A stretch of 64,000 bases of DNA from a virus. Location: positions 3,839 to 67,838 of the IMG/VR virus record IMGVR_UViG_3300022822_000017. One strand, given 5' to 3'. The translations under genes and the position numbers were made by a program. The notes below the pieces were generated by a model that was given only the letters and a program-made list of their open reading frames with translations, searched no databases and was not told the origin of the DNA. Positions 1-64,000 of this stretch are shown here, in pieces (positions within the stretch are counted from its first letter, which is position 1; every line of letters begins with the position of its first letter).

Positions 1-88
1 ACACTATAGTTAAGAAAGCTATGATGATAGAGGACACTATATCATTCCATAAGGTAACAAGAAAGTAACAGTATAAAAGAAAACAAGG

Positions 89-442
89 ATGAATACATTA
101 AAGAAAAAACTAACATTACCCAAGAGTGAGTACTACACAAAGCATTTATCAATAGTGAATGTGTTTTTACCAGTTAAGATGACACCTAAAGAGATTGAGG
201 TTTTGTCTGCATTTATGTCTTTAGAGGGAGACATTGCAGAGCAAAGATTTGGTACCTCAGCCAGGAAGATTGTCATGGATGAAATGAATATTAAGCCTGG
301 AGGATTAGGTAACTATTTTAAGAGTCTTAAAGAGAAAGGCTTTTTGACAGATGACGCACAGAATAAGTTTAAGATATACACTATGTTGTATCCAGACCCA
401 ACTGTTCAAAACTATATGTTTCAATTACAAAAACAAGTATAA
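89..442 (+). CDS. small putative winged-helix DNA-binding protein
   Basis: MTPKEIEVLSAF...LGNYFKSLKEKGFL resembles a MarR-like wHTH pattern; inference from sequence pattern only. Confidence 0.5.
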   Translation: MNTLKKKLTLPKSEYYTKHLSIVNVFLPVKMTPKEIEVLSAFMSLEGDIAEQRFGTSARKIVMDEMNIKPGGLGNYFKSLKEKGFLTDDAQNKFKIYTMLYPDPTVQNYMFQLQKQV

Positions 443-844: not shown

Positions 845-1250
845 TGCCATACCTATAGACCATGGAATGGATTCAGAACAATGGGCAAGAATAATAAGGA
901 CAGACAATATATGTTTTTATGACTCTGTTAAGGGAGATAAGCCTACCTTTATGAATGTAGATTCAAGCATAAAAGTGTTTGACGTACAAGATGAAATAGC
1001 AATGTCAGCATTAGAAGATATACTTAAAGGAAAAGATCCTGTAGAAGTAGTCACTGCTGCTAGCACTGTACTAGGTGAACAAGTACATTTTGATAATCAT
1101 TTGACTGAAAGAGAGGTTGGGCAATTAGAAATAGACAATCCTTTGAGTAGTGAGAATGTTACTAGAGTAGACACAGGCTTTACTTCAGAAGAGAATGAGT
1201 TCATGGATAGAACCATGAGTGGTATTAACTTAATAGATGACACAGAATGA
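765..1250 (+). CDS. hypothetical acidic protein (true start probably near 824-833)
   Basis: ORF in operon context; the annotated start overlaps the upstream gene by 80 nt. Confidence 0.55.
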   Translation: MKKESQNTQGTQGDKLIKENMLVMDINAIPIDHGMDSEQWARIIRTDNICFYDSVKGDKPTFMNVDSSIKVFDVQDEIAMSALEDILKGKDPVEVVTAASTVLGEQVHFDNHLTEREVGQLEIDNPLSSENVTRVDTGFTSEENEFMDRTMSGINLIDDTE

Positions 1251-1381: not shown

Positions 1382-1589
1382 TATATACTTATTAGGAGTA
1401 GAAGGTAGTAAGAGTTTTGACCTTATAAGACAAGAACAGTCTTACTTAATGAAACTAGAAATTTCTGAAGATGTACGTAATTGGTTACTTATGCATGATG
1501 TAGAAGTACAATCAAATGGTTCAAGAGTGTTTATCTGTAACAAAGTAAGGTATGTAGATTTAGGATTAAAAATACAAAAAGATGAATAA
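1374..1589 (+). CDS. hypothetical protein (start moved from 1341 to ATG 1374)
   Basis: AGGAGG just upstream of ATG 1374; overlaps both neighbours. Confidence 0.5.
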   Translation: MNSIYLLGVEGSKSFDLIRQEQSYLMKLEISEDVRNWLLMHDVEVQSNGSRVFICNKVRYVDLGLKIQKDE

Positions 1590-3259: not shown

Positions 3260-3409
3260 ATGACAGTAACACAGACACTTAGCTTACACATAGAGGATAA
3301 AATTAGTTATCATGAAAAGCTTAGAATACAATTTGAAGCTAGTGAACAATTTGAGCAGTGTGCTAGGCATAGAGATGAGGTAACAAAACTTAAAAAGATG
3401 TTAGCTTAA
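3260..3409 (+). CDS. 49-aa UVR (UvrB/UvrC-motif)-like coiled-coil protein, not in ORF track
   Basis: MTVTQ...ASEQFEQCARHRDEVTKLKKMLA fits E-x-F-E-x-A-A-x-x-R-D; its TAA overlaps the terminase ATG (TAATG). Confidence 0.6.
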   Translation: MTVTQTLSLHIEDKISYHEKLRIQFEASEQFEQCARHRDEVTKLKKMLA

Positions 3410-5475
3410 TGGTTACAGAAACTAAGATTAGAGACAAAGATGGCAAGTGGCTGAAGAGTGACTTGTTCAGAGTAGAAGCTATTAAGTTCCAAAAGTATGG
3501 ATACTTCTGTTCTGATTATTGGGGAACTGCAGGATGGATAGAATATTGGGAAGAGCAGTTAAAAAGATGTAAGGATGGATTTGAGATACAAGGAGAGAGA
3601 ATAACAGGTCATCATTATATGTATCTAAATTTTTGTCAGATACAAGTAGTAAAGAAATTAGAAGGGAAGAAGGCTTCCAAGAAAACAACTACTTTTCCAG
3701 ATTTCTGGGATGGAGATTATGATTACTTTTGGTCTCTTGAGATTGCAAGAAATGGGATAGAGAAACAAGAGTTGGAGGACCTTAACCTAGGGGTGAAACC
3801 ACACCCTGACTTCCTAACAGGAGGTTTCCACATGATTGTGGGGAAGAGTAGAAGGAAAGGTTATAGTTACAAGAATGGAGCAATTTCTGCTAACTATTAT
3901 AATACTGAAAGAAAAGCACAGGTTATCATTGGTGCATCAGAAAAGAAGTTTTTGTACCCTAAAGGTACAATGGGTATGACAAGTGATTACCTAAACTTCC
4001 TTAATGAGTTTACAGGTTGGAGAAAATCCAGAGATTATGTAGACAAGCAAGACCATAGAAAAGCATCTTTTAAGAAGAAAATAAATGGGGTAGATATTGA
4101 GTCTGGTTATCAGTCAGAAGTATTTGCCCTAACCTTTAAAGATAATGCTGATGCTGCCAGGGGTAAGGATGGTATAGTTGTATTACTAGAAGAAGCAGGA
4201 GCATTTCCTAACTTAAAAGCTTCTTATGCAGCCATCAAACCTGCACTTACTGCAGGGATGTACATTACAGGACAAATCATTATATTTGGAACAGGTGGAG
4301 ATATGAAATCAGGTACAGCAGATTTTGCTGACATGTTTTATAATCCAGTAGCTTATGGCTTAATGCCATTCATTAACACTTGGGATGACAATGCCCAAGA
4401 GACTACTTGTGGATTCTTCCACCCAGTGACAAAGAACCTAGAAGGGTTCTATGATTTGCAAGGTAATTCAAACATTCCTGCAGCCTTAGAGTTTGAACAA
4501 TCAAGAAGAAAAGTCATACTTGAAAGTAGTAATAACAGTACAGCATATCAAAGACATGTTCAGGAGTTTGCACTAAAGCCATCAGAAGCTTTTTTAACAG
4601 TGTCCACAAATGATTTTCCTGTCATAGAATTAAGAGCACAACTTAACAGAGTATTAAGAGAAAAGTTGATGTTAAAGAAGGGAACACCAGTCTCCCTAAG
4701 AAGAGCAGAAGGGGGTAAAATCCTAGCTGAACCAGATCTGGTCAACAAGTTAAACCCAATAATACATTACAAAGTAAAGGAAGCAGACTTAACAGGATGC
4801 CCTGTTATCTTTGAGTTTCCATCTAATCCACCTAAAGGCTTGTATAAAATAGGGTATGACCCTTATAGGCAAGACCAAACTTCTGGTGTATCTTTGGCAG
4901 CAGTATATGTTTACAAAACAATACAGAAAGGAAACAGCACTAAAAACATTATTGTTGCTACTTATGTAGGTAGACCACAGACCTCAGATTCCTGCAATAG
5001 AATTGTAGAGCTTCTAGCAGAATTATACAATGCAGAAGTAATGTATGAGAATGAAGTACCTGATGTAAAGAAATACTTTGAAAGAAGAAAGAAGCTACAT
5101 TTACTTGCAGCACAACCTGATGGTGTAATATCTAAGAATATCAAAGCTTCAAGAGTAGCTAGAGTATATGGGTGTCACATGAATGAGAAGTTGAAAGATG
5201 CTGGTGCCAAGTACATAAAGCAGTGGCTACTAGAGGAGAGGGATTTTGATGAAAATGGAGATGTACTACTAAATTTAGATTTTATATATGATGTTGGTTT
5301 ACTAGAAGAGTTGATTCTTTACAATAAAAAGGGTAACTTTGATAGAGTTATGTCATTGATGCAAGTTATGTTTCAAGTAGAGGAAGATGAACTAGGCAAA
5401 GAGTACTCTGACACAGGGGAACAAAACCAGAATATAAAAGACTTATTGGAACTTAATTTGTTTAACAAAAACTAA
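3409..5475 (+). CDS. terL: terminase large subunit
   Basis: GKSRRKGYSYK (Walker A-like), VLLEEAG (Walker B), GTGG, nuclease motifs IGYDPY and NFDRVMSL; directly upstream of the portal. Confidence 0.95.
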   Translation: MVTETKIRDKDGKWLKSDLFRVEAIKFQKYGYFCSDYWGTAGWIEYWEEQLKRCKDGFEIQGERITGHHYMYLNFCQIQVVKKLEGKKASKKTTTFPDFWDGDYDYFWSLEIARNGIEKQELEDLNLGVKPHPDFLTGGFHMIVGKSRRKGYSYKNGAISANYYNTERKAQVIIGASEKKFLYPKGTMGMTSDYLNFLNEFTGWRKSRDYVDKQDHRKASFKKKINGVDIESGYQSEVFALTFKDNADAARGKDGIVVLLEEAGAFPNLKASYAAIKPALTAGMYITGQIIIFGTGGDMKSGTADFADMFYNPVAYGLMPFINTWDDNAQETTCGFFHPVTKNLEGFYDLQGNSNIPAALEFEQSRRKVILESSNNSTAYQRHVQEFALKPSEAFLTVSTNDFPVIELRAQLNRVLREKLMLKKGTPVSLRRAEGGKILAEPDLVNKLNPIIHYKVKEADLTGCPVIFEFPSNPPKGLYKIGYDPYRQDQTSGVSLAAVYVYKTIQKGNSTKNIIVATYVGRPQTSDSCNRIVELLAELYNAEVMYENEVPDVKKYFERRKKLHLLAAQPDGVISKNIKASRVARVYGCHMNEKLKDAGAKYIKQWLLEERDFDENGDVLLNLDFIYDVGLLEELILYNKKGNFDRVMSLMQVMFQVEEDELGKEYSDTGEQNQNIKDLLELNLFNKN

Positions 5476-5485: not shown

Positions 5486-7882
5486 ATGGCAGATATTGGA
5501 AAAGGGGTTAGACTCTCACTACAGCAAAAGAACTCCAACAAAAAGCAATGGTTTAAAGACAGAGCCAATGCATTAAAAGGAGCTTCTTTTACTTCTTCTA
5601 CTCACAGTGGGGGAGTATCAGAATACAAAAGAAAGAAAGTCAACTATGACTTGTACAACAACATTATAAACCAAGAAGATTTTGCTTATGTATGTAAGCC
5701 TTTTGGTGCTGGTTCAGGAGAATTACCTGCAACCTTTACAAACAAGGATATTACTTCTCCTAGAATAAAGGCAGTGATAGGGATGGAAATGAAAAGACCA
5801 TTCTCATTTAAGACACTAGCAGTTAATGAAGAAGCTACCAACAGAAAAGAAAAGGTAAAGTTTGACATGATTAAAGAGTACACTGTATCTCAAATTATGG
5901 CTCCTATACAAGCAGAGGTAGAACAGAAGTATCAAGCACAAGCAAAAGGTAGAGAACTTACTCCTGATGAATCAAAGCAGATAGAGCAAGCAATGGCTGA
6001 AGAGATGAAAGCTATGACACCCCCTGAAGTAGGGAAGTACATGTCTAGGCAACATCAAGATCCAGCTGAAGCACTTGGACATCAACTGTTACAAGGGATT
6101 GTACAGAAGCAGGATGTAAAAAGAAAGTTTGACAAAGGTTGGAAACATGCAACATTATCTGGGGAAGAAATTTACTGGGTAGGACAGGTTAGGGGAAAAC
6201 CTAGCTTAGGAGTGACTAATCCTATTAGGTTTGATTATGACAAATCTCCTGATACAGATTTTATTGAAGATGGAGAATGGGCAGTAGCAGAATATAGAAT
6301 GACACCATCTCAGTTTGTTACCATGTTTGGAGATGAATTGACAGATGAACAAATAGACCAAGCATACACTGAAGCAAAAGGTGGAGGTCCTACAAATGCT
6401 GGAGATTGGGCATTCAATGAAACTGAAAGCCAAACAGGAAACACTTTATCAGTTTTCCATTACACATGGAAAGGACTTAGAAGAATAGGTTTCTTAGAGT
6501 ATGCTGACTTAGCAACAGGAGAAACTCAGATGACTGTAGTTGGAGAAAACTACAAAATGGACAAAGACTTAGGAGACATAAAAATGTCTTGGGAGTGGAT
6601 TCCAGAAGTATATGAAACTTATGTAGCAAGAGGAGATATGTATCTTAGGATGCAACCTGTTGAAGGGCAACACAAAGATTTAAACAATTTATTTGAATCT
6701 AAGCTACCTTATTATGGAGCAGCTTATGACAACTTAAATTCTGAGACAACATCATTGATGGACAGAATGAAAGTGTGGCAATACTACTACAACATCATTA
6801 TGTACAGGGTAGAGCTATTAATGGCTTCTGACAAGGGTAAGCTATTACTTATGAATATTAATGCCATACCTAAGTCTTCAGGTATAGACATAGAGAAGTG
6901 GTTGTACTATGCAGAAGCTTTAAAGATAGGTTGGGTTAATCCTAATGAAGAAGGTAACAAAGGTTTAGATGTGACTAACATGGCTAAACAAGTTGACATG
7001 TCTTTAATGTCTGACATACAGAAGTATATTGACTTAGCAGGATACATAGATGACCAATGTGGGAAGTCTGTAGGTATTACTGATGGGTTAATAGGACAGA
7101 TTGAGCAAAGAGATGCAGTAGCAAATACACAACAGAATATGTCTTCTGCTTCTACTATCTTAGAACCTTACTTTGACTTACATAATCATGTAAAGAGAAA
7201 TGTACTTCAGGCACTGATAGAGCAATGTAAAATATCATACTCTGATTCAGAAGATGAATTTATTACATATACTTTAGATGACTTGTCTACTGAAATGTTA
7301 AAAGTAGATGCTGGACTATTAGATTCTTCTACTTATGGAATATTTGTAACCTCATCTTCTAAAGCTTATGAAGCAGTGGAACTAGTTAAACAACTAGCAC
7401 ATGCAGCACAGCAGAACAATTCTATAAAGCTGTCTAGTGTTATTAAAGTAATTAGAGCTGAAGGAATACAAGAAGCAGAAGAATTACTTGAGACAGGAGA
7501 AAATGAAATGACTCAACAAAATCAAGCACAACAATTACAAGCTATACAAGAGCAAGGTAAAAATGAAGAAGCTGCAAGACAATGGCAAAGAGAGACAATG
7601 GATCTTACTCAAGCTAATACATTGGAGCAAATCCAAGCTAAAGGGGAAATTGACCTACAAAAGCAAGCTATGCTTTCTATGGGATTCAATGAGAACAAAG
7701 ACATGGATAATGATGGCACACCAGATATAGTAGAGCTATATAAGGATGGTGCAGATGCAGACTTAAAAATGAGGAAGCAGAATTTAGATGAAAAAAAGTT
7801 TGAAGAGGACAAGAAACAGAACAAAGAGAAAAACTCTATAGAGAAACAAAAAATAACTCAAGCAAAACAAAAGAAAGAATAA
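5486..7882 (+). CDS. portal protein (crAss-like)
   Basis: 798 aa between terL and the scaffold/MCP; crAss-type features (YYYNIIMYRVELLMASDKGK, Gln-rich C-terminal coil, DMDNDGTPD). Confidence 0.9.
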   Translation: MADIGKGVRLSLQQKNSNKKQWFKDRANALKGASFTSSTHSGGVSEYKRKKVNYDLYNNIINQEDFAYVCKPFGAGSGELPATFTNKDITSPRIKAVIGMEMKRPFSFKTLAVNEEATNRKEKVKFDMIKEYTVSQIMAPIQAEVEQKYQAQAKGRELTPDESKQIEQAMAEEMKAMTPPEVGKYMSRQHQDPAEALGHQLLQGIVQKQDVKRKFDKGWKHATLSGEEIYWVGQVRGKPSLGVTNPIRFDYDKSPDTDFIEDGEWAVAEYRMTPSQFVTMFGDELTDEQIDQAYTEAKGGGPTNAGDWAFNETESQTGNTLSVFHYTWKGLRRIGFLEYADLATGETQMTVVGENYKMDKDLGDIKMSWEWIPEVYETYVARGDMYLRMQPVEGQHKDLNNLFESKLPYYGAAYDNLNSETTSLMDRMKVWQYYYNIIMYRVELLMASDKGKLLLMNINAIPKSSGIDIEKWLYYAEALKIGWVNPNEEGNKGLDVTNMAKQVDMSLMSDIQKYIDLAGYIDDQCGKSVGITDGLIGQIEQRDAVANTQQNMSSASTILEPYFDLHNHVKRNVLQALIEQCKISYSDSEDEFITYTLDDLSTEMLKVDAGLLDSSTYGIFVTSSSKAYEAVELVKQLAHAAQQNNSIKLSSVIKVIRAEGIQEAEELLETGENEMTQQNQAQQLQAIQEQGKNEEAARQWQRETMDLTQANTLEQIQAKGEIDLQKQAMLSMGFNENKDMDNDGTPDIVELYKDGADADLKMRKQNLDEKKFEEDKKQNKEKNSIEKQKITQAKQKKE

Positions 7883-7974: not shown

Positions 7975-9159
7975 ATGCCAGGAACAGAACAAACCCAAGA
8001 CAACAAGACTGCAGAAGCACAAGCAGCAACAGACACAGCATTAGACAATTTTCAATGGGATGATACAGGAGGAGGAGACTTTTTTGGTATTGCTGAAACA
8101 GGAACCAAAGAAGATGTAAAACCTGATGTTGTTTCAGATGTTAAAAAGGAAGATGGAAAAGAACCCACTCCTAAAGCTGATACAAAGAAAGAAGGAGAAG
8201 AGGAAGATGAAGAAGAAGATAGTTTCTTTGATATTGTAGACAAGCCAGGAGAAACAAAAGAAGGAGAAGAGGACCAGGGAAGTGATGAGGATGTAGATAA
8301 AGATTACTACAAAACTTTAGCTTCTAGAATGAAAGAAGATGGTATCTTTCAAAATGTAGATATTCCTGAAGGGGAAGATTTTACAGAAGATAAGTTCATT
8401 GAATTACAGGATTTAGAGATAGATTCAAGGGTAGAGGAAGCTTTTGAGGGATTCTTTTCAGAACTAGACGCTGATGGTGCTGCATTTTTAAAGCACAAGA
8501 AAGAAGGTGGAAGTACTGAAGATTTCTTTAAAACTTATGGTCAGAGTACAGGTGCTCCACAAGGAGACTTGGATGATGAGTCCTATCAAGAACAGGTCAG
8601 CAGATATTACTATGAACAAGAAGGAGAAGATCCTGAAGACATAGATGATAAGATTGAGTGGCTTAAAGATAGTGGCAAGTTAGAAAAGTATGCACAGAAG
8701 TTTGATGGTAAGTTAAAAGAAAATGACAAGAAGACCAAAGAAGATTTAGCAAATAATACCAAAGCTGCAGAAAAGACTGCAGAAGAAGGTAGGTTAGCTT
8801 TTGCTACAAGTGTCCAAGAAGCTTTAGAAGCTATAGAAGAAGTGGACAACTTTAAATTTACTAAAGAGAGTAAGAAAACTTTACTCCCTTTTATCACTAA
8901 AGCCACTGTAAAAGTTGGGAAGAACAAGCATATAACAGGTATGCAGGATAAGTTAAGTGCTACACTTAAAGATCCTAATAAAATGTTAGTACTTGCTCAA
9001 TTATTACAGAATGATTTTGATGTTTCTAGTATCATTAACAGTGCAACCACTGCTAAGACTAAAACATTGAAGGATGACATTCAAAGAAAAAAGACTTCTG
9101 TAAGACCTACAAATTCAGGTAAAGCAGGTAGTAGAAAAAGCCTTTCAGAATTTTTCTAA
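7975..9159 (+). CDS. acidic scaffold-like protein preceding major capsid
   Basis: Highly acidic, low-complexity N-terminus and helical C-terminus; position between portal and MCP. Confidence 0.7.
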   Translation: MPGTEQTQDNKTAEAQAATDTALDNFQWDDTGGGDFFGIAETGTKEDVKPDVVSDVKKEDGKEPTPKADTKKEGEEEDEEEDSFFDIVDKPGETKEGEEDQGSDEDVDKDYYKTLASRMKEDGIFQNVDIPEGEDFTEDKFIELQDLEIDSRVEEAFEGFFSELDADGAAFLKHKKEGGSTEDFFKTYGQSTGAPQGDLDDESYQEQVSRYYYEQEGEDPEDIDDKIEWLKDSGKLEKYAQKFDGKLKENDKKTKEDLANNTKAAEKTAEEGRLAFATSVQEALEAIEEVDNFKFTKESKKTLLPFITKATVKVGKNKHITGMQDKLSATLKDPNKMLVLAQLLQNDFDVSSIINSATTAKTKTLKDDIQRKKTSVRPTNSGKAGSRKSLSEFF

Positions 9160-9201: not shown

Positions 9202-10647
9202 ATGGTAGGTAACAAATTAATTACCAAACAAATGCCTTGGCATGCTAACATGACAGAGATGAACCATTTAGGTAAAGCTCTTATTGCAAAGCCAGACAAG
9301 TTTGAGTCAAAAATTGGACAGTTGTTTACAGCTGAAAAGTATTCTGATAACCCTTTAACTGCTATGGCACTTAAAGAAGGTAGAGAGGAAAACACCAATT
9401 CTTCTATGTGGGAATGGGATATGCGTGCTGCAAGCACTAGACCTTTAGTAGTACTAGAAGATGTATCTCCTGGAGATACAACAAAAGGAAAGTTCAAAGG
9501 GACTTTCAAAATCAAATTAGATGAGAACTGGTATGAGCCAGGAGACATCATTACTCCAGGAACTACTAACAAGAAGTTCCAATGTAGAGTACAAGAAGAG
9601 CGTGTTCCTCATGGGAAAGGTTTTATCTACACTTTACGTTTGATGAGTGATAACCCACAATTGTTTATTCCTTCTATGTATTTCAAAGCAGGAACACAAT
9701 GGGGTAAATTGTATTCTCAATATGCTGAAGCTGAAACTCAATCAGGTTCTACACAATATGCTTTGCCTATCACTATGGCAAACAGAATGTCTAGATTCAG
9801 AAAGAAGTACAAGGTTACAGGAGATGCACACAATGAGGTATTGGCTGTAAAGATTCCAGACTCAATGGGTACTTACCATGATTCATGGGTTAAGTATGCA
9901 GAGGTAGAGTACTGGCAACAATGGTACAGAGAAATTGAAAGAGGATACTGGTACTCAAGAAGTACAGATTCAGTATTATCTGCCAATGGTAGACCAATCA
10001 GAACAGGACCAGGATTACAAGAGATGTTAGAAGATTCTCACACACAGCGTTATTCTCACTTAACTGCAAGGTTAATTGAAGAGTACTTAATGGGTATTTT
10101 CTACTCAAGAGTTAAGCCAGGTGCTGCAAGAAAAATCAAAGGATATTCAGGTGAATATGGAATGATTAACTTCCACAGAGCTATACAAGATTGGGCAACT
10201 AAAACTGGATTTATTCAGGTGGTACAAGATTTATTTATCCAGAAGGGTTCTTCTGAATACAATGATAATGCTGTATCTGCAGGTTACCAATTCACAAAAT
10301 ACAGAATGGCAAATGGTGCTGAATTAGAATTAATTCACAATCCACTTTATGATGATAGAGAAATCAATTTTGAAATTGACCCTGTTACAGGTTACCCTCT
10401 TGAATCTCAAAGAATCACATTCTTAGATTTCTCAGGAGAAGGTAAATCTTCTAACTGTAGAATAGTAAACAAAAACAAGTCATACAAACTTGGGTATGTT
10501 GCTGGTTTGACCAACCCTTATGGTCCTAATGATGGAAAGTTAATGAGCCATTCAGGTGACTTCTATGAAATGCATGTTGAGAAACAATCAGGTATGCACA
10601 TTGAAGACATTGGAAGATGTGGTGAATTAATCCTTTCTAGAAACTAG
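9202..10647 (+). CDS. major capsid protein (crAss-like)
   Basis: 481 aa; TGPGLQEMLE and ELIHNPLYDD motifs; synteny; followed by a strong terminator. Confidence 0.9.
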   Translation: MVGNKLITKQMPWHANMTEMNHLGKALIAKPDKFESKIGQLFTAEKYSDNPLTAMALKEGREENTNSSMWEWDMRAASTRPLVVLEDVSPGDTTKGKFKGTFKIKLDENWYEPGDIITPGTTNKKFQCRVQEERVPHGKGFIYTLRLMSDNPQLFIPSMYFKAGTQWGKLYSQYAEAETQSGSTQYALPITMANRMSRFRKKYKVTGDAHNEVLAVKIPDSMGTYHDSWVKYAEVEYWQQWYREIERGYWYSRSTDSVLSANGRPIRTGPGLQEMLEDSHTQRYSHLTARLIEEYLMGIFYSRVKPGAARKIKGYSGEYGMINFHRAIQDWATKTGFIQVVQDLFIQKGSSEYNDNAVSAGYQFTKYRMANGAELELIHNPLYDDREINFEIDPVTGYPLESQRITFLDFSGEGKSSNCRIVNKNKSYKLGYVAGLTNPYGPNDGKLMSHSGDFYEMHVEKQSGMHIEDIGRCGELILSRN

Positions 10648-12352: not shown

Positions 12353-13384
12353 ATGTCAAGAAACAATGATGTTTTTACAGTATTAATTCCAACAGTTGCA
12401 ACAATTGCAGTAGCAGGAACAGGCTTAGGTGCCTTAGCAGAAGGTGCTCTTGGAGCATTTGATTATGATACAAACTTAGCAGTAGATGGACCAGTAGATA
12501 AGTTCTTCTTTGCAGTAGGTATTAAAGATTTAGATGGTGTCTCTGACATCAACAGATCAGGTGGTACACACATCCAATCAAGAAACATAGTATCTTTAAC
12601 AAGCAACTGTTATACTGCACCTGTGCAGATGGTTACAGCTAGTGAGTTGAAAGTTATGCGTTGTGGTGGAGAAGTAGGTGTAAAAGTTGAAATCAGAAAC
12701 CAAGAAGCTTACAGATTAAATGGTTACAATCAAGTTGTAAAAAACTTTATAGTACCAACATCTGAATGTGTTGATTGTGATTCTACTTGTGAGGATGAAA
12801 ATTCTGCTGCAGTTTTACAAAGCTTAGTTGATTTAATCAATGATGATGCTGATAAAGTTGTAGTTGCAAGTATTACAAGTGTAACTGCAAATTCAGTAGT
12901 AACTCAAAGTTTAGTTATGACTGTTAATCCTAAATCATTGAAGAAATTCTCTGAAATTAACTTAGGATACTTTTTCCCTAACCAAACAGAAATCATTGTG
13001 ACTTCTACAAAAGGGTTTAAGAATGCTACTATTACTACACCAATGGTGTATGAAGAAGGAGCAGGAACAGATGTTAAGCAATTAGAGTATGTTGCTAATG
13101 GATGGAAGAACAGTACTCCTTACAGAGTGTCTCCTTTAAATGGAGTTGCTTTAGAAGGTGCACAGTACTTTGCTGACCAAGATAAGAAGTATGATTTGAT
13201 ACACTTAAGTTATGACCAAGTTTCTGTTTCAGGATGGGAATCTAATGCTCATTTCATGAGAACAATCATTGCAACTTCTAATGAAGCAGGAGCTTTAAGT
13301 AAGAATGTAGGAGATTTTGTCAATGTAATGACAGCTGGTAAAGTTGATGCTATTGAAGTATGTGACAACCAACCTTCTTCTTAG
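12353..13384 (+). CDS. abundant structural protein (auxiliary capsid-like)
   Basis: 343 aa, beta-rich; last gene before a terminator; synteny with the crAss auxiliary capsid gene. Confidence 0.55.
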   Translation: MSRNNDVFTVLIPTVATIAVAGTGLGALAEGALGAFDYDTNLAVDGPVDKFFFAVGIKDLDGVSDINRSGGTHIQSRNIVSLTSNCYTAPVQMVTASELKVMRCGGEVGVKVEIRNQEAYRLNGYNQVVKNFIVPTSECVDCDSTCEDENSAAVLQSLVDLINDDADKVVVASITSVTANSVVTQSLVMTVNPKSLKKFSEINLGYFFPNQTEIIVTSTKGFKNATITTPMVYEEGAGTDVKQLEYVANGWKNSTPYRVSPLNGVALEGAQYFADQDKKYDLIHLSYDQVSVSGWESNAHFMRTIIATSNEAGALSKNVGDFVNVMTAGKVDAIEVCDNQPSS

Positions 13385-13471: not shown

Positions 13472-14413
13472 ATGGCAGACGTAAATCATACATTAACTAC
13501 ACTACAAGATGTTAACTACATCTTAAACAATGAGCCTACAGCCATTGGATTTACTCTCTCTGAGATAGACCCTTGTACAGCAGATAAGACCATTTTAGTA
13601 GGTACTATTGAGCCTGGGGTTAACTACAAGTTACCTATAAAAGTAGATGGCAGGTATAGTGTAAAGCTAGAACTGTTAGATACTGAATCTACTATTATAA
13701 TAAACCATTATGTAAAGTTACAATTATCAACTATAGAGAGCATATTTTCTGTTACCTGTGATTGTGGTTGTGGATGTGCAGATTGCACAGACCTAAACTT
13801 AGACATATACAAAGCACTACTAGCAACAAGAAATAAGATAGATACCTTAAAATATTTGTCTTCTCCTAAGTATGACTCTTTCTTTCAGAAAGTTCATAAG
13901 GGAATTAGTTGTTTAATAGAGCCACAAATTTATTGTGACATTACTACAGAATCTGTAACAGGTGTATCACAATACAATTCACAACTTACTAAAGATTTGA
14001 TATCTTTAGATTATTTAATAATGTACTTTGCTGACCTTAGAGATGTTTCAGATTTAGATGAGATTGCTTACATCAATGATAAGTATCAATCAGAGTCTAT
14101 ACTTTGTTGTATAAACTCTTCTGGAGTTAACATCAAAGAAATACAAGACATAGTAAATAGCACAACAACTACTACTTTATGTCCTGTATGTCCTGAGTAC
14201 ACAACAACAGCTTGTCCAACAACAACAACCACTACCACTGAAGAAGTAACAACTACTGAAGATCCAGTAACAACTACTACTACAGAGGACCCAGTTACAA
14301 CAACAACTAGTACAAGTACAACAACAACAACTAGCACCACAACAAGCACAACTACAACTACCACAGCAGCACCAGATGATTGTGAGTTAGTAGGAACTGC
14401 AGATGAGGTATAA
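13472..14413 (+). CDS. putative virion fibre-anchor protein with Cys cluster and Thr-rich linker
   Basis: CDCGCGCADC; poly-Thr tract near the C-terminus; ends in DCELVGTADEV. Confidence 0.6.
   Translation: MADVNHTLTTLQDVNYILNNEPTAIGFTLSEIDPCTADKTILVGTIEPGVNYKLPIKVDGRYSVKLELLDTESTIIINHYVKLQLSTIESIFSVTCDCGCGCADCTDLNLDIYKALLATRNKIDTLKYLSSPKYDSFFQKVHKGISCLIEPQIYCDITTESVTGVSQYNSQLTKDLISLDYLIMYFADLRDVSDLDEIAYINDKYQSESILCCINSSGVNIKEIQDIVNSTTTTTLCPVCPEYTTTACPTTTTTTTEEVTTTEDPVTTTTTEDPVTTTTSTSTTTTTSTTTSTTTTTTAAPDDCELVGTADEV
14160..14365 (+). repeat. ACN-rich low-complexity tract encoding mucin-like Thr/Ser linker
   Basis: TTTTTTTEEVTTTEDPVTTTTTEDPVTTTTSTSTTTT. Confidence 0.85.
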
Positions 14414-14428
14414 AATAATTATAGAGAT

Positions 14429-15163
14429 ATGACAATAATATTGACATTAACAACAGCAGGTATAGACACTACTGCTTTTAATCTTTATTCCAATGCAGAC
14501 AGTTATACTGCTATACAAGATACTGCCACTAGAGCAGAATTGATGGCAGGTAAAACAGTTACAATGCCAGCAGGTACTACAGCAATAAAATGTGTAGCTA
14601 CAGGTGAGTGTTCTTCTGAATTGTTTGTATCAGTAATAAACAAGTTAGCTCCATCAGGTTCTATCTCTGGAGGAGATTTATTAACATGTGTTAATACAAG
14701 TAACATCTTAACTGCAAATGTAGTTTACCAAGGTACACCTTCTTACTTGTGGTCTCCAGGAGGAGCAACTACACAAAACTTAACTGTCAATAGTCCAGGT
14801 ACATATTCAGTACAGGTTACAGATAGTTACAATAACAAGACAAGTACTATCACTAAAATAGTTTCAGAAAATGTAATAGCACCTTCAGTCAACATAGTTG
14901 AGACAGGTTCATTACCAGGTTCTGTAACACTAAGTGCAAGTGGGTCTACTGCACAAGGTAGTAAGACTTATTTGTGGAGTACAGGAGAAACTTCTGCTAA
15001 CATTATAGTAAATGGACCAGGAGTGTATGATGTTACAGTAACAGGAGGACTTAATGGATGTACAGCTAATCAGAGCATACAAGTTCTTGATTGCTCAATG
15101 ATAGGGACAATAGAAGATGTTACCCCAGAATGTGAAATGGAAGGTAATGCAGAAGAAGTATAA
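14429..15163 (+). CDS. putative virion decoration/fibre protein with two Ig-like (SprB/PKD-like) repeats
   Basis: YLWSPGGATTQNLTVNSPGTYSVQVTD and YLWSTGETSANIIVNGPGVYDVTVTG. Confidence 0.7.
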   Translation: MTIILTLTTAGIDTTAFNLYSNADSYTAIQDTATRAELMAGKTVTMPAGTTAIKCVATGECSSELFVSVINKLAPSGSISGGDLLTCVNTSNILTANVVYQGTPSYLWSPGGATTQNLTVNSPGTYSVQVTDSYNNKTSTITKIVSENVIAPSVNIVETGSLPGSVTLSASGSTAQGSKTYLWSTGETSANIIVNGPGVYDVTVTGGLNGCTANQSIQVLDCSMIGTIEDVTPECEMEGNAEEV

Positions 15164-15184
15164 ACAAGTTAACAATTATAAATT

Positions 15185-17456: not shown

Positions 17457-17474
17457 AACATAAACAATAAACCT

Positions 17475-17780: not shown

Positions 17781-17786
17781 ACTACA

Positions 17787-18731: not shown

Positions 18732-18761
18732 TTATCTGAGTAACATTTAAAAAACAATACA

Positions 18762-48500: not shown

Positions 48501-49370
48501 ACTGAAATAGATCCTTTTAGTCAAAATGATTTAGATGGATTAACTACTAATTGGAACAGTACAGATTTACACCCTACTGATAGTATGGTTCTTAATGGTA
48601 TGGGTCTTAAAATACAACAAGACATACCATTTAAGTCTGCTGTAAAAGGAGATGATAAGGTATCTATGGGTACACAAATTTTCAAACTATTATTTGGAGA
48701 TGGAGTTGCAGATATTAACACAGATGACTTTGATGGTGCTTCATTACAAGAAGAGTTCTTTGAAGCTTTTTCTGTAATGATAGACATTAGCAAGCAAAAC
48801 TTGTTAGACAAATTAGGGTTAGATGAAAACTACAAGCCTATTGATAAAGCTGAATCTTTTGAAAAACTTAGTGAGTTATTAAAAGAATCTGCAGAAGAAA
48901 GAGACTTCTCTGATAATGATTTAAAATTATTAGATGTAAATGAATCAACAAAAAGGGATGGCTCTAAGGTAAATCACTTTACCTTGCCACTATGGTTTTC
49001 TGGGAACAGTAACAAGTTTGAATCTATGCTTACTGCTATTGTAAACAATAAGATATTTAAACAAAAATTACCAGGAAACTCTTTTGTAGTAGGGTCTGAA
49101 GCAGGTCTTACAATAAGAACACAAGAAGATTTGTTCCAAGAAACAGAAGAAGTTGTAGAAGAAGTAGTAGTGCCACAAAAAGCACAACCTGTTGCAACTG
49201 ACTTGACTGCTGAACAAAAAGCAGAAGCTAAACCTGAGTTATCAATGTCTTTTGTAAGTAGGTCTGAACTTACTAACTCTGAAGATATAGATAAAACTCT
49301 TGAAGATAACAATAGAATAAAAGATGAGTACACAGAACTTGAAGACTTAATGGGTTGTTTATGGCAGTAG
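39582..49370 (+). CDS. giant virion protein; C-terminal part is the first (beta-like) half of the virion RNA polymerase
   Basis: 3262 aa; C-terminal motifs KRLALMIAPG, TDAQEYTT, KSSSFPL, SANKVG, KQKLPGNSFV as in crAss-type RNAPs. Confidence 0.75.
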   Translation: MNEEEFLLKYNLKYNEIGALTTLNDVYVSEFSNEEGSVKSHVSKADFDLNNKQQGEVIKSGYEFDETSDYGEYDQKKQSVAKAKLNTYLQDPSFTTLSELPENGSKDPNYQVAFDGIMKEKQKKGEDYFSSFEAMEQNISRTRQQDIEDNVVLSSLETDEERKSYIANQANLKKLEKEHGKDDKTLIKEAAEIEDLAIGPNGIPMMRPDEDANIIEKGMFSVMKGFSDAKSWALAGMTSAGEGIEDEKAKAEYLRLKDEEHVLIAPIATKKKMELQAKMDLLEKQAEDVGYWSRDYAMLNRQHQQMGKKIMELDNFVNKAQFDWSIFSSKTITDIASLGFTDVHEQLLIDLAISKKMENKEELSDLEKGYLETQHTLKDIDGLPLEQSFMHQVTGGTVQSFSFLLGGIGGRAAGKVISRGITTKLAKLSTPLVKTLAVSANVGTQTLLHSNTYNESLKQYVGDVEITEDAEGQPVFLARHDLYNSIKEENRLKLVGLDRAIFQNEGNAKVVAELEASKKSLTAYDNSVKMPMSGAKSLLYGGFETLKEVGSEQFGGAILGKLGSGAKGSIAWMGKKANIGPNKLSIGLEKARRKFSSLDSNALNDFNRMATAVPGKKLIGGQGEEMFEEVLVQVIPTVGSDWQDYKNQLSELTKADFYVKIAAQTFLMRSGMKGVSSAKQKYDTFTKLSSKDRATAKKAQEEMEVLFKTMGKKGGTQADFNKAFMQIGEGKFSITDYNNAIQGLQESGNFEEVSTQEEMKRDFAQKQIQAVQAQGKLKEFKKALNKAKYNKNLDAGTKGHMAFLSQEINEIEGDDATYVNSTQVINLKSKKKYTDRALAKLETSALNQDINESEALDEINKKLNTKDKTVKEIFKGDLKFSLGNIAGMSNNAQEYLALEQQRHSMTEASNELQKEIERVTDFKHQNVLMNEQDYSAYIARVNKKVFKGEITADQFQKYIADQPRSDFKKNLTPESLSKINSAIHEELVSNETAVRKYSAFQKQMEARAKEKAAAEKAAASFKKGGDDVTKPDAETIKAQGQETVAETATPLTEEVVAKSVETPKAKTTAEQQEYHQVNSDNIFGALNAVAEATSVLPETNVTSETRKDKLVQSKQGAIEQAKLEQVVTDLKAEKVALRDKDGTISDENMKRFKSIQKLISKATKKATRADTSNGVFHAIKTKSPVDGDPVVLTQSDAIKAEQDIQEIITNGLKNKKDSNDILSEITSKYSFDISTVSSILNYIEDQDSSVPEVGNNKQSFAAWRKASYDNKRVEEDTDDTEDLDEDGYIEMMLPGGTYLNDKTTATLKAYYEDKIKWEGVSPTFQDFWLEAIQEGFIAKNDLSKEQIKMLGLNWQQAGNGKSNWESIWDKNYVKPNSFLSQVFEENGSLVKTEEEVIAEIEEASEAAVIKAEPQQVINPTTGAVVPVTSVAGKTSVVTAKANFKAIAYQNETSDVQTVNGKKVIQVSKQDTNQGVPMLAESKTINIVATLNSNPGDIWSVAMATEAEWDIPVEVTNTANWTTEFMPFSTWVKRNIKGRSIEDFQNSPEYINKVPMLYRNNKQQVVGVVADSDWYSPLTIKDSSKKNGEFVELNNPTAAHAKSIKEGKDNTIALRQKIASGEVTNMEVETRDGSPYAKVPRNLPAVSLEKASPTSEIVFFKTGNFYGLNNEKINEDKTKAITNPGLIKKLNQQNNSGNNSAYYMSPVYIKDGVQFYEVIAVLRKNENNENSAFDADIQTSKYILGAQKVLKFPDANQQELGITKTEALALQALVKAQTGLDIQDYGVAKELVHGLIAIQGLNSDAKDSKFTVSSKNVPIMYQDKNGNLDTKEVSFTDALFLGQSTVVQNTYVNSNNSKGITISKNSEGSFDVNVAETYEKFLRKRLFTDVVSYDIGTEGNPKFTHSVQPIIKLKTTTAVSVTVAPQVKNEVKPTIAVAKETLTEEQNEQVLAAQNALRLLNALNEGSISEDYIGDLKNISNVKKALNLVSTFLPKQQRELGGYMFSLIANNSTEANNLNNTEFKQLIERLYKDNFRAKKAEITAQYNIIKSIADSGNSSEAIQELLKNLVATVDNLDMVINNFDQIYLKKIREAGKKKFIDTNVKSAKDLEKELDKEASQAEQGYVKDYNQSSNEVVHKDKISKKLKKIFSEVSTGETGFMGIDLYQNYDKVYNKIASFMSNPLPLSPNFDTMIAKLETIPEFASIVASLKESDVDVQNGFVSNMYKYAANAKFIAFTTNGQTGLEGEVWFSNRNNLKQKIRETWDNNFKRSDVVTQDSLNQEKLQKLADQYDSWKGEGFNQDPEVLKEWLRSFGLDISEGTWDELVEGNLMINRTGLSNEKLSFEDLFYDEGKRRDRLFSSLANYAKTYAKTSSAIDFTKNDKLVPFEDMNNIMKGLIEIESHHNASLANITRRDGGKTVSEIVFPSHFLDTFNALSNSAGTDKAGIKALQETAYAENSYWLDLLMNEPAMADVFSYGETGLMSMRNMDKPMNDYSKIENLSSLDYMYHQRAMFQFMRTEPFPRYKGFKMRVATMSIPTSSDKGRMMLLKVPVFDLLAMENTLTANDNGTVNFSQDLNDLLFEQLVKPELNRIVEHKLLETEPDIKNYNKGAVRFNAMAGLNTLKNSEGVSAVKFLEQGGSIKDFTSQYKDAAVAHIKELMENDVVQNLSVIGDTNQNSDNFNKKEYISRNTATTNQKKKLAEFDYVINSYFNNTNIMQTMAGDPAIYFNSKGSDSTIDDKALQAQYSKELGVNMGKRLALMIAPGIVTANSDTQKHIQLFLKDQSEVASMAENIVEFHYGKDALKEEFMGKTYDQHIKDLRDKKSTDVVKEQLNLKFAKVAKFFDIESTDAQEYTTLREHLRLLVGEGKITQDKADEIHDHVFVKKLPLDRNDKDVQLVLQPMKPVYTGSVIKDGINRIMYIKSSSFPLIPDLITGTGLEPLMNKMNEIQELSGGKTVRASYQSANKVGAMATEIDPFSQNDLDGLTTNWNSTDLHPTDSMVLNGMGLKIQQDIPFKSAVKGDDKVSMGTQIFKLLFGDGVADINTDDFDGASLQEEFFEAFSVMIDISKQNLLDKLGLDENYKPIDKAESFEKLSELLKESAEERDFSDNDLKLLDVNESTKRDGSKVNHFTLPLWFSGNSNKFESMLTAIVNNKIFKQKLPGNSFVVGSEAGLTIRTQEDLFQETEEVVEEVVVPQKAQPVATDLTAEQKAEAKPELSMSFVSRSELTNSEDIDKTLEDNNRIKDEYTELEDLMGCLWQ

Positions 49371-49735
49371 ATAAAAAGAACAAAGATTTTATAGAAGAAT
49401 TTGCAATAAGTGAGAAGAGACACAGGGAACTTATTCTCACTATCAAAGGCATAGTTAATGAAATGCCTAAGACTGAAATAGACCTTTCTTCTTTAGAGAC
49501 AGTAAAGGATTCTATTAACAAACTCATTAGTACTCAAAAGTTTGCAAACACTACTCCTGACAATAAAGTAGAACTATTGGACAGTATTAAGAATTTAAGT
49601 GCTAACTTTGTAGAAAGCATGGTTGAGTTAAGAGCTGCAGTTGAGCTATCTAACAGACCCAAAGAGTATGTTTTTCATGTTGAAAGAGACAATGAAGATA
49701 ATAAGATTACTAAAGTAATAGCTAAAACTAAATAA
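49361..49735 (+). CDS. hypothetical coiled-coil protein, first gene of the RNAP-interrupting cassette
   Basis: ATG 49361 overlaps the upstream gene end by 10 nt; ends KEYVFHVERDNEDNKITKVIAKTK. Confidence 0.65.
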   Translation: MAVDKKNKDFIEEFAISEKRHRELILTIKGIVNEMPKTEIDLSSLETVKDSINKLISTQKFANTTPDNKVELLDSIKNLSANFVESMVELRAAVELSNRPKEYVFHVERDNEDNKITKVIAKTK

Positions 49736-49902
49736 TGAAAGCATTTGCAATTGTACAAGATACACAGAACACTGGAGACCAGGACTTATCTGCATATCAA
49801 ACAATTGAAAATGCAGATTATAAACTATCACTAAAATCAGATACAGACCATGAACATGAAATAGGTAACATGAAATTGTTATTTGAAAACTCTTTATTAT
49901 AA
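49735..49902 (+). CDS. 55-aa fibre-associated protein, not in ORF track
   Basis: TAATG overlap; MKAFAIVQDTQNTGDQDLS...LLFENSLL shares NTGDQD with the 50597 ORF and a C-terminus like the 49946 ORF (AFESALL). Confidence 0.65.
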   Translation: MKAFAIVQDTQNTGDQDLSAYQTIENADYKLSLKSDTDHEHEIGNMKLLFENSLL

Positions 49903-49945
49903 ACACAATTACTATTAATATATACAACCATTAACAACAAACACA

Positions 49946-50593
49946 ATGAGCTTAATCCAAAGAATTTCAGACTTAACCATCAGGGTTGGTACTGAATTTA
50001 AAACAGTAAAAACGTTAATAGCAGGAACTGCATCTGGTAGTTTAACAGCATTAACAACAACAGTAAAGACAAGTATTCTTGCAGCAATCAACTCACTTAA
50101 AACTGAAGTAGATGGCAAGCAAGCAAATTTAGGTTACACACCTGAAGATGAAAACAACAAAGGTCAAGCAAATGGATATGCTCCATTAGATGCTAATGCC
50201 AAAGTACCTGCTGCACATTTACCTGCTTATGTAGATGATGTATTAGAATCAGCTGATTTTGCTAGTTTACCAGCTTCTGGTGAAACAAGTATTATCTATG
50301 TAACATTAGATGATAACATCACTTACAGATGGACAGGTTCAGGGTATGTAGAGATTTCTAAATCTTTAGCTTTAGGAGAAACTTCTTCTTCTGCATATAG
50401 AGGAGATAGAGGTAAGATTGCTTATGACCATTCACAGATTACAGATGCTAACCCACACCAAACTACATTTGAGCAATTATTAGCAAAACCTACAACAATT
50501 GCTGGGTTTGGAATTACAGATGCATTTACTAAAGATGAAATTGGAGATGTAACCACAAACTATGTGTCTGCATTTGAATCAGCTTTGCTATAA
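49946..50593 (+). CDS. fibre/whisker-like structural protein
   Basis: NKGQANGYAPLD, LPAYVDDVLE, LGETSSSAYRGDRGKIAYDHSQ, KPTTIAGFGITDA are common phage fibre modules. Confidence 0.75.
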   Translation: MSLIQRISDLTIRVGTEFKTVKTLIAGTASGSLTALTTTVKTSILAAINSLKTEVDGKQANLGYTPEDENNKGQANGYAPLDANAKVPAAHLPAYVDDVLESADFASLPASGETSIIYVTLDDNITYRWTGSGYVEISKSLALGETSSSAYRGDRGKIAYDHSQITDANPHQTTFEQLLAKPTTIAGFGITDAFTKDEIGDVTTNYVSAFESALL

Positions 50594-51702: not shown

Positions 51703-53127
51703 ATGATAACATTAAAAGCACGTAGAACTCTGAATGCTATTGAGACAGGGACTTTAGATAGTTCAGGTTTAGAAGCTAGATTAGCAGACCCTGGACATTT
51801 AGCAGAATTTTACAGTCTGTTAGCAACTAAAAGCCAAACTAGAAGAATGGCTTCAAGTGAATTAACAATGGAAGCAATTGCTTTTAGTGAAAAAGCTCAC
51901 AAAGCTATTTTTCAATCTTCTACAAATTACAATACAACAGCTGCTCAAGCAGTTGCAGATAGTCCTGTAGCTATGGCTAAAATGGCTGTGTCATTAGATG
52001 CTTTAACAGTAGCTATTGAGAACCCAGTATCATGGGCATTATTTACAAACAGTCCTTACTATGAAGTAAACATTAAAACTATTGTAGCATTATTTGCTGG
52101 ATTAGATGCAAGTCTGTATGAGTCTATTCAAGAAATGATAGAAGACCCTGCAGCAACTTATGAAATTGCAGCAAATGATAATGCAATGACTGCACTTGTA
52201 AATAGTACAATAGCTATGACTAAGGCAGTAGACACAATTACAGCAATGGATGACATTGTAGCTGATACCTCAGCATTTACAATTTTAGCTAATCATGGTC
52301 CTAGTTTAAACTTAGTTGCACAAAGTGCAATAGCTATGTCTGCAACTACTGATGAAGCTAGAGCAATTGTAGTAGGTATTCCTTCTGGACTTAGAATCTT
52401 TGCTTCTTACCCAGTTCTTTGGAAATCTCTAATGGAGACTTCAGAAACTTTAGCCACTAATATGTATAGTTTAATTATTGTACTTACAGAAATAGACCCT
52501 ACTGTCTTTACAACAGTAGAACAAATATTTGGTAATGAAATATCAATGGACAAAGTTGCAAGTAACAGTCCTACTATGGTAGCAATAATGCATGAAGAAG
52601 GTACATTAAATGCAATGATTGCTAGTGCTCAATTAGATGTTGTATTAGCTAATCCTGTGTCAATGGGATTATTTGCAGCAGACACAACAATTATGAGTGA
52701 CCTTATTGGGTCATCAGCATTCACTGCTTTACTAGGAAGTCCTTTAGCTAAAGAAGCAATTTTTGCTTCTCCTTCTTTGATAACAACAATGACAGAAGCA
52801 GGTTCAGATTCTCTTGCAACACTAGAAGGGTTGTCTGTTAACTTAACAGGACCCACACCAGACACTAAGATTGGACAATTTCAAAGCTTAGGTCTTACAG
52901 GTAACATTATTTTGTTAACTGCTAGGATAGGTTCTATTACTGCTGCTAAAGTTGACAACTACTTTAAAGGAGATGGTCAATCAACTGCAACATTTGCTTG
53001 TCCAGGTACTCATGCAGCAAGTGAGTATCCAATAATCAATTTACCATTTACTAATATCCAATGGGATATTAACTCTATTGCAGCAACTGCAGCTGCTAAG
53101 ATTACAGTAACTTATGTTTCATTTTAA
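51703..53127 (+). CDS. Ala-rich alpha-solenoid-like repeat protein, paralog 1
   Basis: Short repeated amphipathic helices (~12-aa period); colinear with the next ORF. Confidence 0.7.
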   Translation: MITLKARRTLNAIETGTLDSSGLEARLADPGHLAEFYSLLATKSQTRRMASSELTMEAIAFSEKAHKAIFQSSTNYNTTAAQAVADSPVAMAKMAVSLDALTVAIENPVSWALFTNSPYYEVNIKTIVALFAGLDASLYESIQEMIEDPAATYEIAANDNAMTALVNSTIAMTKAVDTITAMDDIVADTSAFTILANHGPSLNLVAQSAIAMSATTDEARAIVVGIPSGLRIFASYPVLWKSLMETSETLATNMYSLIIVLTEIDPTVFTTVEQIFGNEISMDKVASNSPTMVAIMHEEGTLNAMIASAQLDVVLANPVSMGLFAADTTIMSDLIGSSAFTALLGSPLAKEAIFASPSLITTMTEAGSDSLATLEGLSVNLTGPTPDTKIGQFQSLGLTGNIILLTARIGSITAAKVDNYFKGDGQSTATFACPGTHAASEYPIINLPFTNIQWDINSIAATAAAKITVTYVSF

Positions 53128-63988: not shown

Positions 63989-64000
63989 AAAGAAAAAAAA

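Follow-up and report, generated by a model that had tools for sequence, protein, structure and literature searches.

The window analysed here is a stretch of 64,000 bases (33.7% G+C) from the IMG/VR virus record IMGVR_UViG_3300022822_000017, a record of 67,838 bases (67.8 kb) that is rated 72% complete. It carries the terminase, portal and capsid genes of a crAss-like phage, and the dinucleotide CG is almost completely missing from it. Only 12 CG are present against 1788.4 expected by base composition, an observed/expected ratio (O/E) of 0.007, and the complete record contains the same 12 (O/E 0.006). The depletion is confirmed and highly non-random, and it is the property of a large phage clade that reaches beyond this window. 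Coding sequence on the plus strand makes up 97% of the window, with all large genes on one strand. The surviving CG sites, and the genes among which they lie, are as follows.

355..356, plus strand: surviving CG at the codon junction of GAC with GCA, context ACGC
983..984, plus strand: surviving CG at the codon junction of GAC with GTA, context ACGT
1476..1477, plus strand: surviving CG in a CGT Arg codon of the small open reading frame (ORF) 1341-1589, context ACGT
3409..5475, plus strand: large terminase (TerL), 688 aa, phrog_6681, E 3.7e-162; no CG
5486..7882, plus strand: portal protein, 798 aa, phrog_6547, E 1.8e-175; no CG
8469..8470, plus strand: surviving CG at the codon junction of GAC with GCT, ORF 7975-9159, context ACGC
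9202..10647, plus strand: major capsid protein (MCP) gene, phrog_11589, E 1.8e-168; four of the 12 CG of the window
9424, 9601, 9637 and 10048, plus strand: the CG sites of the capsid gene, in CGT Arg codons at aa 75, 134, 146 and 283
12659..12660, plus strand: surviving CG in a CGT Arg codon, ORF 12353-13384, context GCGT
13480..13481, plus strand: surviving CG at the junction of GAC with GTA at the start of ORF 13472-14413, context ACGT
13482..50012, plus strand: CG-free stretch of 36.5 kb with Thr/Ser-repeat, lysis and nuclease genes and genes of giant virion proteins (1883 aa, 3262 aa)
50013..50014, plus strand: surviving CG in the sole ACG Thr codon of the window, ORF 49946-50593, context ACGT
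51721..51722, plus strand: surviving CG in a CGT Arg codon, ORF 51703-53127, context ACGT

The GC dinucleotide occurs 1859 times against 1788 expected, and this normal ratio (1.04) indicates that the CG deficit is not an effect of A+T richness. The longest stretch without CG measures 36,533 bases, from 13.5 to 50.0 kb. The survivors are found in the contexts ACGT (six), GCGT (four) and ACGC (two), which makes all 12 of them RCGY, and CCG, TCG, CGA and CGG do not occur at all. The probability of RCGY at 12 of 12 sites is 4.7e-8 by composition, where it is 0.245 per site, and 6.7e-5 when conditioned on the codon structure of the survivors.

A first-pass annotation, made from the letters of the window, had reported about 12 CG, and both the count and all positions were exact. 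The computed values also agree with its remarks that none lies between about 13.5 and 50 kb, that Thr and Ser codons avoid ACG and TCG (one ACG among 1912 Thr codons and no TCG among 1649 Ser codons), that A+T content is not the reason, and that GGCC is absent and GATC sparse. The excess of TG and CA that it proposed to look for is present (ratios 1.16 and 1.23, respectively). Its statement that only RCGY survives holds for this genome but not for the relatives, which keep other contexts.

Contigs in Logan from two sequencing runs (X1 and X3) match positions 1-20000 of the window with 0 differences. It may be that the two runs represent the source sample itself, so the identity checks the assembly and does not amount to an independent sample. 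An assembly artefact or the miscalling of modified bases is rejected in view of the intact long ORFs, the use of AGA at conserved Arg positions and the identical Logan contigs.

Codon structure of the CG loss

The 639 Arg codons of the window comprise 519 AGA, 113 AGG and 7 CGT, with CGC, CGA and CGG at zero. TCG, CCG and GCG codons are likewise missing, and ACG is used once. The avoidance extends across codon boundaries, where C meets G 4 times while the margins predict 690. Codons ending in C are common but are placed before A, T or C, and the junction deficit of 686 is matched by the excess of C-A, C-T and C-C junctions taken together (+686), with T-G junctions at +181. The non-coding DNA of the window contains no CG against 37 expected.

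Shuffling of synonymous codons within each gene, which retained every protein and its codon counts, gave 609.7±18.8 CG, with a minimum of 554 in 200 shuffles, against the 12 observed. This excess shows that codon order as well as codon choice avoids CG, which makes the avoidance a property of the nucleic acid. It indicates that the CG loss reflects selection acting at the DNA level, across codon junctions, and not decay by deamination.

By codon type the 12 survivors comprise seven CGT Arg codons, four junctions of GAC with G and the single ACG. The capsid gene makes up 2.3% of the window yet holds 4 of the 12 sites (enrichment P = 1.1e-4). In a codon alignment of the capsid genes of 35 relatives, AGA and CGT interchange repeatedly at conserved Arg positions, and only one of the four CGT sites of the window (aa 146) is common to the relative G001. 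This turnover, with one site in four in common, argues that the CG sites are young and turning over. They are commonest where a translational preference for CGT and GAC is expected, which suggests that the cost of each site is small and not lethal. CGT probably lingers in this genome because its sole synonymous route to AGA runs via CGA, which is a forbidden CGR word.

CG content among relatives and co-resident phages

The predicted terminase, portal and capsid proteins match the crAss-like PHROG families listed above, and tblastn gave matches to FpV4, crAss001, p-crAssphage and Cellulophaga phage phi14:2, in line with the crAss-like identity guessed in the first-pass annotation. Among cultured phages the closest are FpV4, Fpv1-3 and FPSV of Flavobacterium psychrophilum, with an MCP identity of 61.5%. 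These similarities support the assignment of the window to a crAss-like phage of an FpV4-like, Fipvunavirus-related lineage. All four public runs that contain the record are labelled salt lake metagenome, and a scan of bacterial genomes with TerL had as its sole match a contig in a metagenome-assembled genome of Saccharibacteria.

Relatives were sought with TerL, and the 60 IMG/VR loci gathered in this way span CG O/E values from 0.00 to 0.93. In a TerL tree of 58 rows, made with FastTree only and with long branches flagged elsewhere in the tree, the window falls within a 36-row clade that contains FpV4, with a local support of 97. O/E is at most 0.2 in 31 of these 36 rows and 0.32-0.49 in 5, and outside the clade it is at most 0.2 in 3 of 22. 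The whole FpV4 genome has 106 CG in 88,308 bases (O/E 0.065). The other depleted relatives range from 0.137 (G003) through 0.077 (G002), 0.053 (G008) and 0.048 (G001) down to 0.006 in G007, which has 9 CG in 89 kb. On a branch separate from the FpV4 clade, crAss001 has 87 CG in 102,679 bases (O/E 0.028).

In the comparison with related crAss-like phages, which the first-pass annotation had recommended, most members of the FpV4 clade and crAss001 are likewise depleted, and other crAss-like genomes are found at 0.39-0.60 (phi14:2 0.46, cr60_1 0.60, p-crAssphage 0.55, ProJPt-Bp1 0.58 and G004 0.39). The FpV4 clade itself has non-depleted members, namely G005 (0.47) and G006 (0.39). A further 81 clade loci, gathered with a ThiF-like gene of the replication module, have a median O/E of 0.09, with 57 below 0.2 and 12 at or above 0.3. 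The strongest contrast within this ThiF-carrying group is L159, a 20.6-kb IMG/VR locus of 43% G+C with a CG O/E of 1.32, whose ThiF-like gene is 57% identical to that of G001.

Phages of other families on these hosts do not have the deficit. The siphovirus Fpv5 (KU599880, L065), from the same F. psychrophilum strain 950106-1/1 as FpV4, has 1682 CG at 32% G+C (O/E 1.556), the temperate F. psychrophilum phage 6H is at 0.972, and the Bacteroides fragilis phage B40-8 is at 1.194. CG loss is thus not a matter of host composition. In Fpv5 CCGG is found 139 times against 27 expected and CCG/CGG stands at 2.7, the opposite of FpV4. Within the depleted genomes CG is retained in tRNA genes, which hold 20-35 CG in crAss001 (20), G002, G003 and G008; the array of 8 tRNA genes in G007 (67539-68261) has 0 CG.

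The contexts of the remaining CG were also compared. The four NCG classes are reduced to about the same extent in most depleted genomes, and all ten NCGN classes are depleted 10-100 fold. The values for palindromic and non-palindromic NCGN are 0.032 and 0.055 in G001, 0.082 and 0.075 in G002, 0.037 and 0.077 in FpV4, and 0.044 and 0.022 in crAss001. Since palindromic words are no more reduced than non-palindromic ones, the common target is CG itself and not particular restriction sites. RCGY accounts for 1 of 9 survivors in G007, 7 of 106 in FpV4, and 0 of 3, 3 of 22 and 0 of 5 in L002, L004 and L005, which are the nearest relatives of the window; the RCGY rule is private to this genome. TCG/CGA contexts make up 8 of the 9 survivors in G007 and 87 of the 106 in FpV4. 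Among the non-depleted members, G005 (L203-L207; 44.7% G+C, 98.5 kb) has GCG/CGC at 0.10 and GCGC once, and G006 (L208-L212) has CCG/CGG at 0.19 with GGCC once against 71 expected.

Several other features of the window and its relatives were recorded alongside. Giant RNA polymerase-like proteins packaged in the virion are a feature of crAss-like phages, and the window contains ORFs of 1883, 3262 and 2901 aa; the 1883-aa family is common to FpV4, G001, G002 and G003. TerL frames vary among relatives (the window at 3409-5475, FpV4, L014, L016-L020 and others) from 683 to 765 aa, and the frames of L035 and L064 reach 1092 and 1019 aa; these length differences suggest that some lineages carry inserts, for example inteins or introns. 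Two genes (19223-20926, 567 aa; 21574-23208, 544 aa) are made up almost entirely of degenerate repeats rich in Thr and Ser, each about 9-10 residues long and of the type T-T-T-[YWF]-N-T-S-[KR]-S, which is also listed for 13472-14413 and 23830-24231. They sit among ORFs to which no function was assigned, including a phrog_4417 protein (16536-17456), and a generic S-adenosylmethionine (SAM) methyltransferase (23233-23805), and their products may be decorated virion fibres. The same repeats cause joints in the contigs at 19766-20000 where the sequence goes back on itself. A gene for a PD-(D/E)XK (Cas4-like) nuclease lies at 27211-27999 within the structural and lysis block; by annotation, p-crAssphage carries a PD-(D/E)XK nuclease close to its lysis genes, and FpV4 an exonuclease in a comparable position (20789-21499).

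Candidate causes of the CG loss

The explanation that fits best, and to which we give about an even chance, is a pressure from the host side that is directed at CG in the duplex DNA of the phage. Long-acting purifying selection would have purged CG from the double-stranded DNA of this phage, and the same purge would have taken place in the majority of the FpV4-like crAss clade and also in crAss001, which lies on a branch of its own. The route would have been one of synonymous changes, with CGN Arg codons turned into AGR, NCG codons into NCH, and NNC-G junctions into NNT-G or reordered, so that protein sequences paid no cost. The selective agent most likely lies outside the phage, in Bacteroidota hosts. 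It may be a nuclease, or a defence of another kind, with CG or NCG as the word that it recognises, or else a host CG methylation that leaves the DNA open to methyl-dependent restriction when the following host is entered. Each site seems to carry a small, additive cost, and CG would persist or reappear where another force opposes it, as with CGT for Arg and GAC for Asp in the capsid gene here and with the tRNA genes in relatives. The flank patterns of the lineages (RCGY in the window, TCG/CGA in G007, the lack of GCG/CGC in G005 and of CCG/CGG in G006) may be the footprints of current host-specific specificities. The absence of both YCG and its complement CGR, with all genes on one strand, fits recognition of duplex DNA, and we infer a host-side agent with a role in defence. 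Among the three causes offered in the first-pass annotation, a CG-recognising restriction or other host defence stays the best reading, while methylation decay and a phage nuclease are disfavoured for the reasons given below.

A number of observations weigh against a host-side agent. No CG-reading nuclease or defence was identified in an analysis that covered phage genomes only, and the sole habitat label of this phage is salt lake metagenome. A host that cuts CG must protect its own, yet 6H, a proxy for F. psychrophilum DNA, stands at 0.97, and Fpv5 grows on the strain of FpV4 with its 1682 CG, which a simple CG restriction system does not explain. Across the clade and its habitats, the loss of CG varies much less than the avoidance of GGCC and GATC does, a pattern that also fits a cause intrinsic to the phage lineage. 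Selection at the RNA level is formally possible because CG is its own reverse complement, and the symmetry argument rests on 12 sites only. Finally, the gene-content test described below had two non-depleted clade genomes and covered only ORF families detectable by blastp.

Taking the host-side pressure one step further, it is possible, although we hold it only tentatively, that a widespread new anti-phage system, or a family of such systems whose NCG specificity shifts, reads duplex CG as non-self in Bacteroidota hosts. With the same reserve it can be proposed that crAss-like lineages, including crAss001 and FpV4, might escape by CG-free rewriting of their genomes, in what would be, in its logic, a bacterial counterpart of vertebrate CpG sensing. 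Were this true, unrelated phages of the same hosts would need other escapes; B40-8 is annotated with two DNA methyltransferases. Neither TLR9 nor animal immunity fits a salt-lake phage, and both were discarded as causes.

A cause intrinsic to the phage is unlikely in our view, and it could take the form of a CG-directed nuclease or nickase used against host or rival DNA, or of a replication, transcription or packaging machine that performs poorly on CG. It would agree with the uniformity of the loss in habitats as different as a salt lake, a fish pathogen and the gut, and Chlorella viruses do use nucleases with sites of 2-4 bp against host DNA. It would also agree with the replication-module cluster (a ThiF-like E1, a JAB-like protein and an unassigned protein) that crAss001 shares with the FpV4 clade and that is missing from 5 non-depleted crAss-like genomes. 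This cluster was tried as the determinant and rejected: its three adjacent families are present in 5 of 5 complete depleted genomes and in 0 of 5 non-depleted ones, but an O/E of at least 0.3, and in one case of 1.32, was then found in 12 of the 81 loci with the ThiF-like gene. The non-depleted G005 and G006 are themselves ThiF-carrying loci (L143 and L127). All 8 clade genomes compared have 30 ORF families in common, and none is found in at least 5 of the 6 depleted genomes while missing from both non-depleted ones. Tests of family against trait in the 81 loci gave weak associations only, which track sequence distance; just one family was confined to non-depleted loci (4 of 12), and it matched nothing in Pfam. 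No gene that follows the trait was found in the phages, and they keep CG-bearing tRNA genes (20-35 CG in crAss001, G002, G003 and G008), which a self-directed nuclease would cut. The CG-directed phage nuclease sparing its own genome, which the first-pass annotation had listed, is disfavoured for want of any gene family that separates the six depleted from the two non-depleted members.

The cluster is located at L119:5656-9585 (G001), at 63878-67889 in FpV4 and at 81394-85804 in crAss001. It consists of a ThiF-family E1-like gene (PF00899, 1e-14), a weak match to the prokaryotic JAB family and one or two unassigned proteins. Common to the FpV4 clade and to crAss001-like gut phages, it is missing from phi14:2, cr60_1, p-crAssphage, ProJPt-Bp1 and G004. 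It looks like a phage-carried ubiquitin-like conjugation module that is not tied to CG loss.

Ordinary avoidance of restriction sites is a somewhat less likely alternative still. According to it, the CG loss is the sum of avoiding many CG-containing sites of 4-6 bp across host strains, and nothing reads CG itself. Site avoidance is evident in the genome, given that GGCC is found 0 times against 50 expected by composition (16 by a Markov model), that GATC is about 5-fold low, at 37 against 192 (152 by the Markov model), and that the 6-mer palindromes GAATTC, CATATG, GTATAC, TGATCA and GGATCC occur 0 times each with expectations of 5-21. FpV4 has no GATC and two GGCC, and crAss001 no GGCC and one GATC. 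The avoidance of GGCC and GATC varies between relatives, and such differences in non-CG words are what host-specific restriction would produce. A published study places restriction-modification genes in genomic islands of F. psychrophilum strains (PMC4829187). Short palindromes well under expectation, as in restriction-site avoidance, are thus a feature of the window. The purged word itself, CG, does not have the typical length of a 4-8 bp site, and all ten NCGN classes are down 10-100 fold, non-palindromic as much as palindromic. Four palindromic 4-mers without CG (AGCT, TGCA, GTAC and CTAG) have ratios of 1.2-2.0, and many CG-depleted loci do not avoid GGCC, such that CG loss is uncoupled from the avoidance of GGCC and GATC (in L144-L160, for example, CG is at 0.02-0.06 and GGCC near expected).

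Selection at the RNA level, in which a host ribonuclease, a toxin or an effect on translation would act on CG in transcripts by analogy with the action of ZAP on CpG of vertebrate RNA viruses, appears improbable to a similar degree. With 97% of the window coding and the large genes on one strand, almost all CG would enter transcripts; the self-complementarity of CG means that depletion alone cannot separate DNA from RNA; and the survivors cluster as preferred codons in the gene with the highest expression. The flanks follow a palindromic rule, with RCGR at 0 of 12 survivors (P ~4e-5 by composition), and duplex recognition fits this better. We know of no CG-specific bacterial RNase.

Decay by methylation, in which C5-methylated CG (by a host or phage enzyme) would drift to TG and CA as 5-methylcytosine deaminates to T, as in vertebrates and some Mollicutes, is the least probable of these causes. 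TG and CA are in excess in the window, virion DNA is beyond repair while outside a cell, and FpV4 is annotated with a uracil-DNA glycosylase, an enzyme that would not repair T:G mismatches. Against this, CGN codons, which decay through C to T and G to A would relatively spare, account for 7 of the 639 Arg codons, and their synonymous replacement needs a transversion from C to A at the first codon position, which is not deamination. The deficit of C-G junctions is offset more by C-A, C-T and C-C (+686) than by T-G (+181). No C5 methyltransferase (PF00145) was found in the 15 phage records searched, with a control search that matched 9 of 14 known genomes. Genomes in the same cells do not share the deficit (Fpv5 1.56, 6H 0.97, B40-8 1.19), and an O/E of 0.006 is far under the vertebrate level of about 0.2. 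The CpG methylation with deamination that headed the causes in the first-pass annotation is accordingly disfavoured.

Two related candidates were also rejected. The 190-aa methyltransferase of the window (23233-23805) has only matches to generic small-molecule SAM methyltransferases and is not among the families present in at least 3 depleted genomes, and it is probably irrelevant to DNA. Hypermodification of cytosine in the non-depleted relatives was considered in view of their ThyA-like proteins; these carry the PFN motif, which we take to mark an ordinary dUMP-specific thymidylate synthase and not a dCMP hydroxymethylase, and G007 has the same genes yet stands at 0.006.

Significance and relation to known systems

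Short words lost from phage genomes have proved dependable guides to the attacking host enzymes, and here the word is two bases long. If a host factor is the cause, it would be a not-yet-described defence or DNA-marking system of Bacteroidota. FpV4 and crAss001 can both be cultured, which opens the trait to direct experiment, and crAss001 is the laboratory model for crAss-like phages. It may be necessary to keep CG out of engineered crAss-like phages and out of any DNA brought into these hosts, and CG content could help to recognise clade members in metagenomes. The paper that describes crAss001 ranks crAss-like phages first in abundance among the phage families of the human gut (PMC6235969), and phage treatment has been put forward against the fish pathogen that FpV4 infects (PMC4829187).

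A search of the full-text literature, with subscription journals outside its coverage, returned no report of CG loss in crAss-like phages. The terms restriction, methyl and digest are all missing from the text of the crAss001 paper (PMC6235969). In the text of a CpG survey of 7,011 phage genomes the string 'crAss' does not appear, and its supplementary tables may list such genomes (bioRxiv 10.1101/2025.05.15.652987). Site avoidance and CpG suppression were known already; a 15- to 150-fold purge of a dinucleotide in large DNA phages (68-103 kb) is what we have not found in print.

Enzymes with short motifs offer one point of comparison. M.SssI recognises CG, and to our knowledge no such short-motif enzyme has come from the Bacteroidota hosts of crAss-like phages. 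Methyltransferases that recognise CG, TCG and CNG exist, as stated in a preprint (bioRxiv 10.1101/2022.06.10.495194), and this makes CG readers of that size plausible. The likeness lies in words of 2-3 bp with CG, since the NCG patterns of the lineages described here (GCG, CCG, YCG) are of the same size. The difference is that none of the 15 phage records searched has a C5 methyltransferase of the PF00145 family.

Suppression of CpG of the vertebrate type leaves an O/E of about 0.2-0.5. It is known from vertebrates and from RNA viruses of vertebrates and plants, where a review relates it to methylation decay and to ZAP (PMC8410138). The dinucleotide is the same as in these phages, and codon junctions are included in both. 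The suppression there stems from decay of 5-methylcytosine or from RNA sensing, whereas here an O/E of 0.006-0.07 is found in a DNA phage of bacteria. For the loss in these DNA phages, the evidence speaks against decay and speaks weakly for recognition of duplex DNA.

Among phages, FpV4 (genus Fipvunavirus; NC_041872) resembles the window in its MCP (61.5% identity), its TerL (~50%), the order TerL, portal, scaffold-like gene and MCP, and the purge of CG. It differs in its O/E, which at 0.065 against 0.006 leaves the phage of the window ten times lower, in its survivors, of which 87 of 106 are TCG/CGA where the window has RCGY only, and in its source, a fish pathogen and not a salt lake. crAss001 (Steigviridae; MH675552) resembles the window in its near-total loss of CG and has no GGCC and one GATC, but belongs to a distant branch on which its TerL sister, the Cellulophaga phage phi14:2, stands at 0.46. 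The position of phi14:2 beside crAss001 means that the trait either arose separately or was lost in phi14:2.

The closest parallel in kind is the avoidance of restriction sites in phages, reportedly described by Sharp in 1986 and by Rusinov et al. in 2018 (as cited in PMC8410138). As in that classical case, short words have been lost selectively and synonymously from unmodified phage DNA, and GGCC, GATC and the 6-mers are examples of it in this genome. The classical sites are the 4-6 bp targets of identified enzymes, whereas here a word of 2 bp has been purged in every flanking context.

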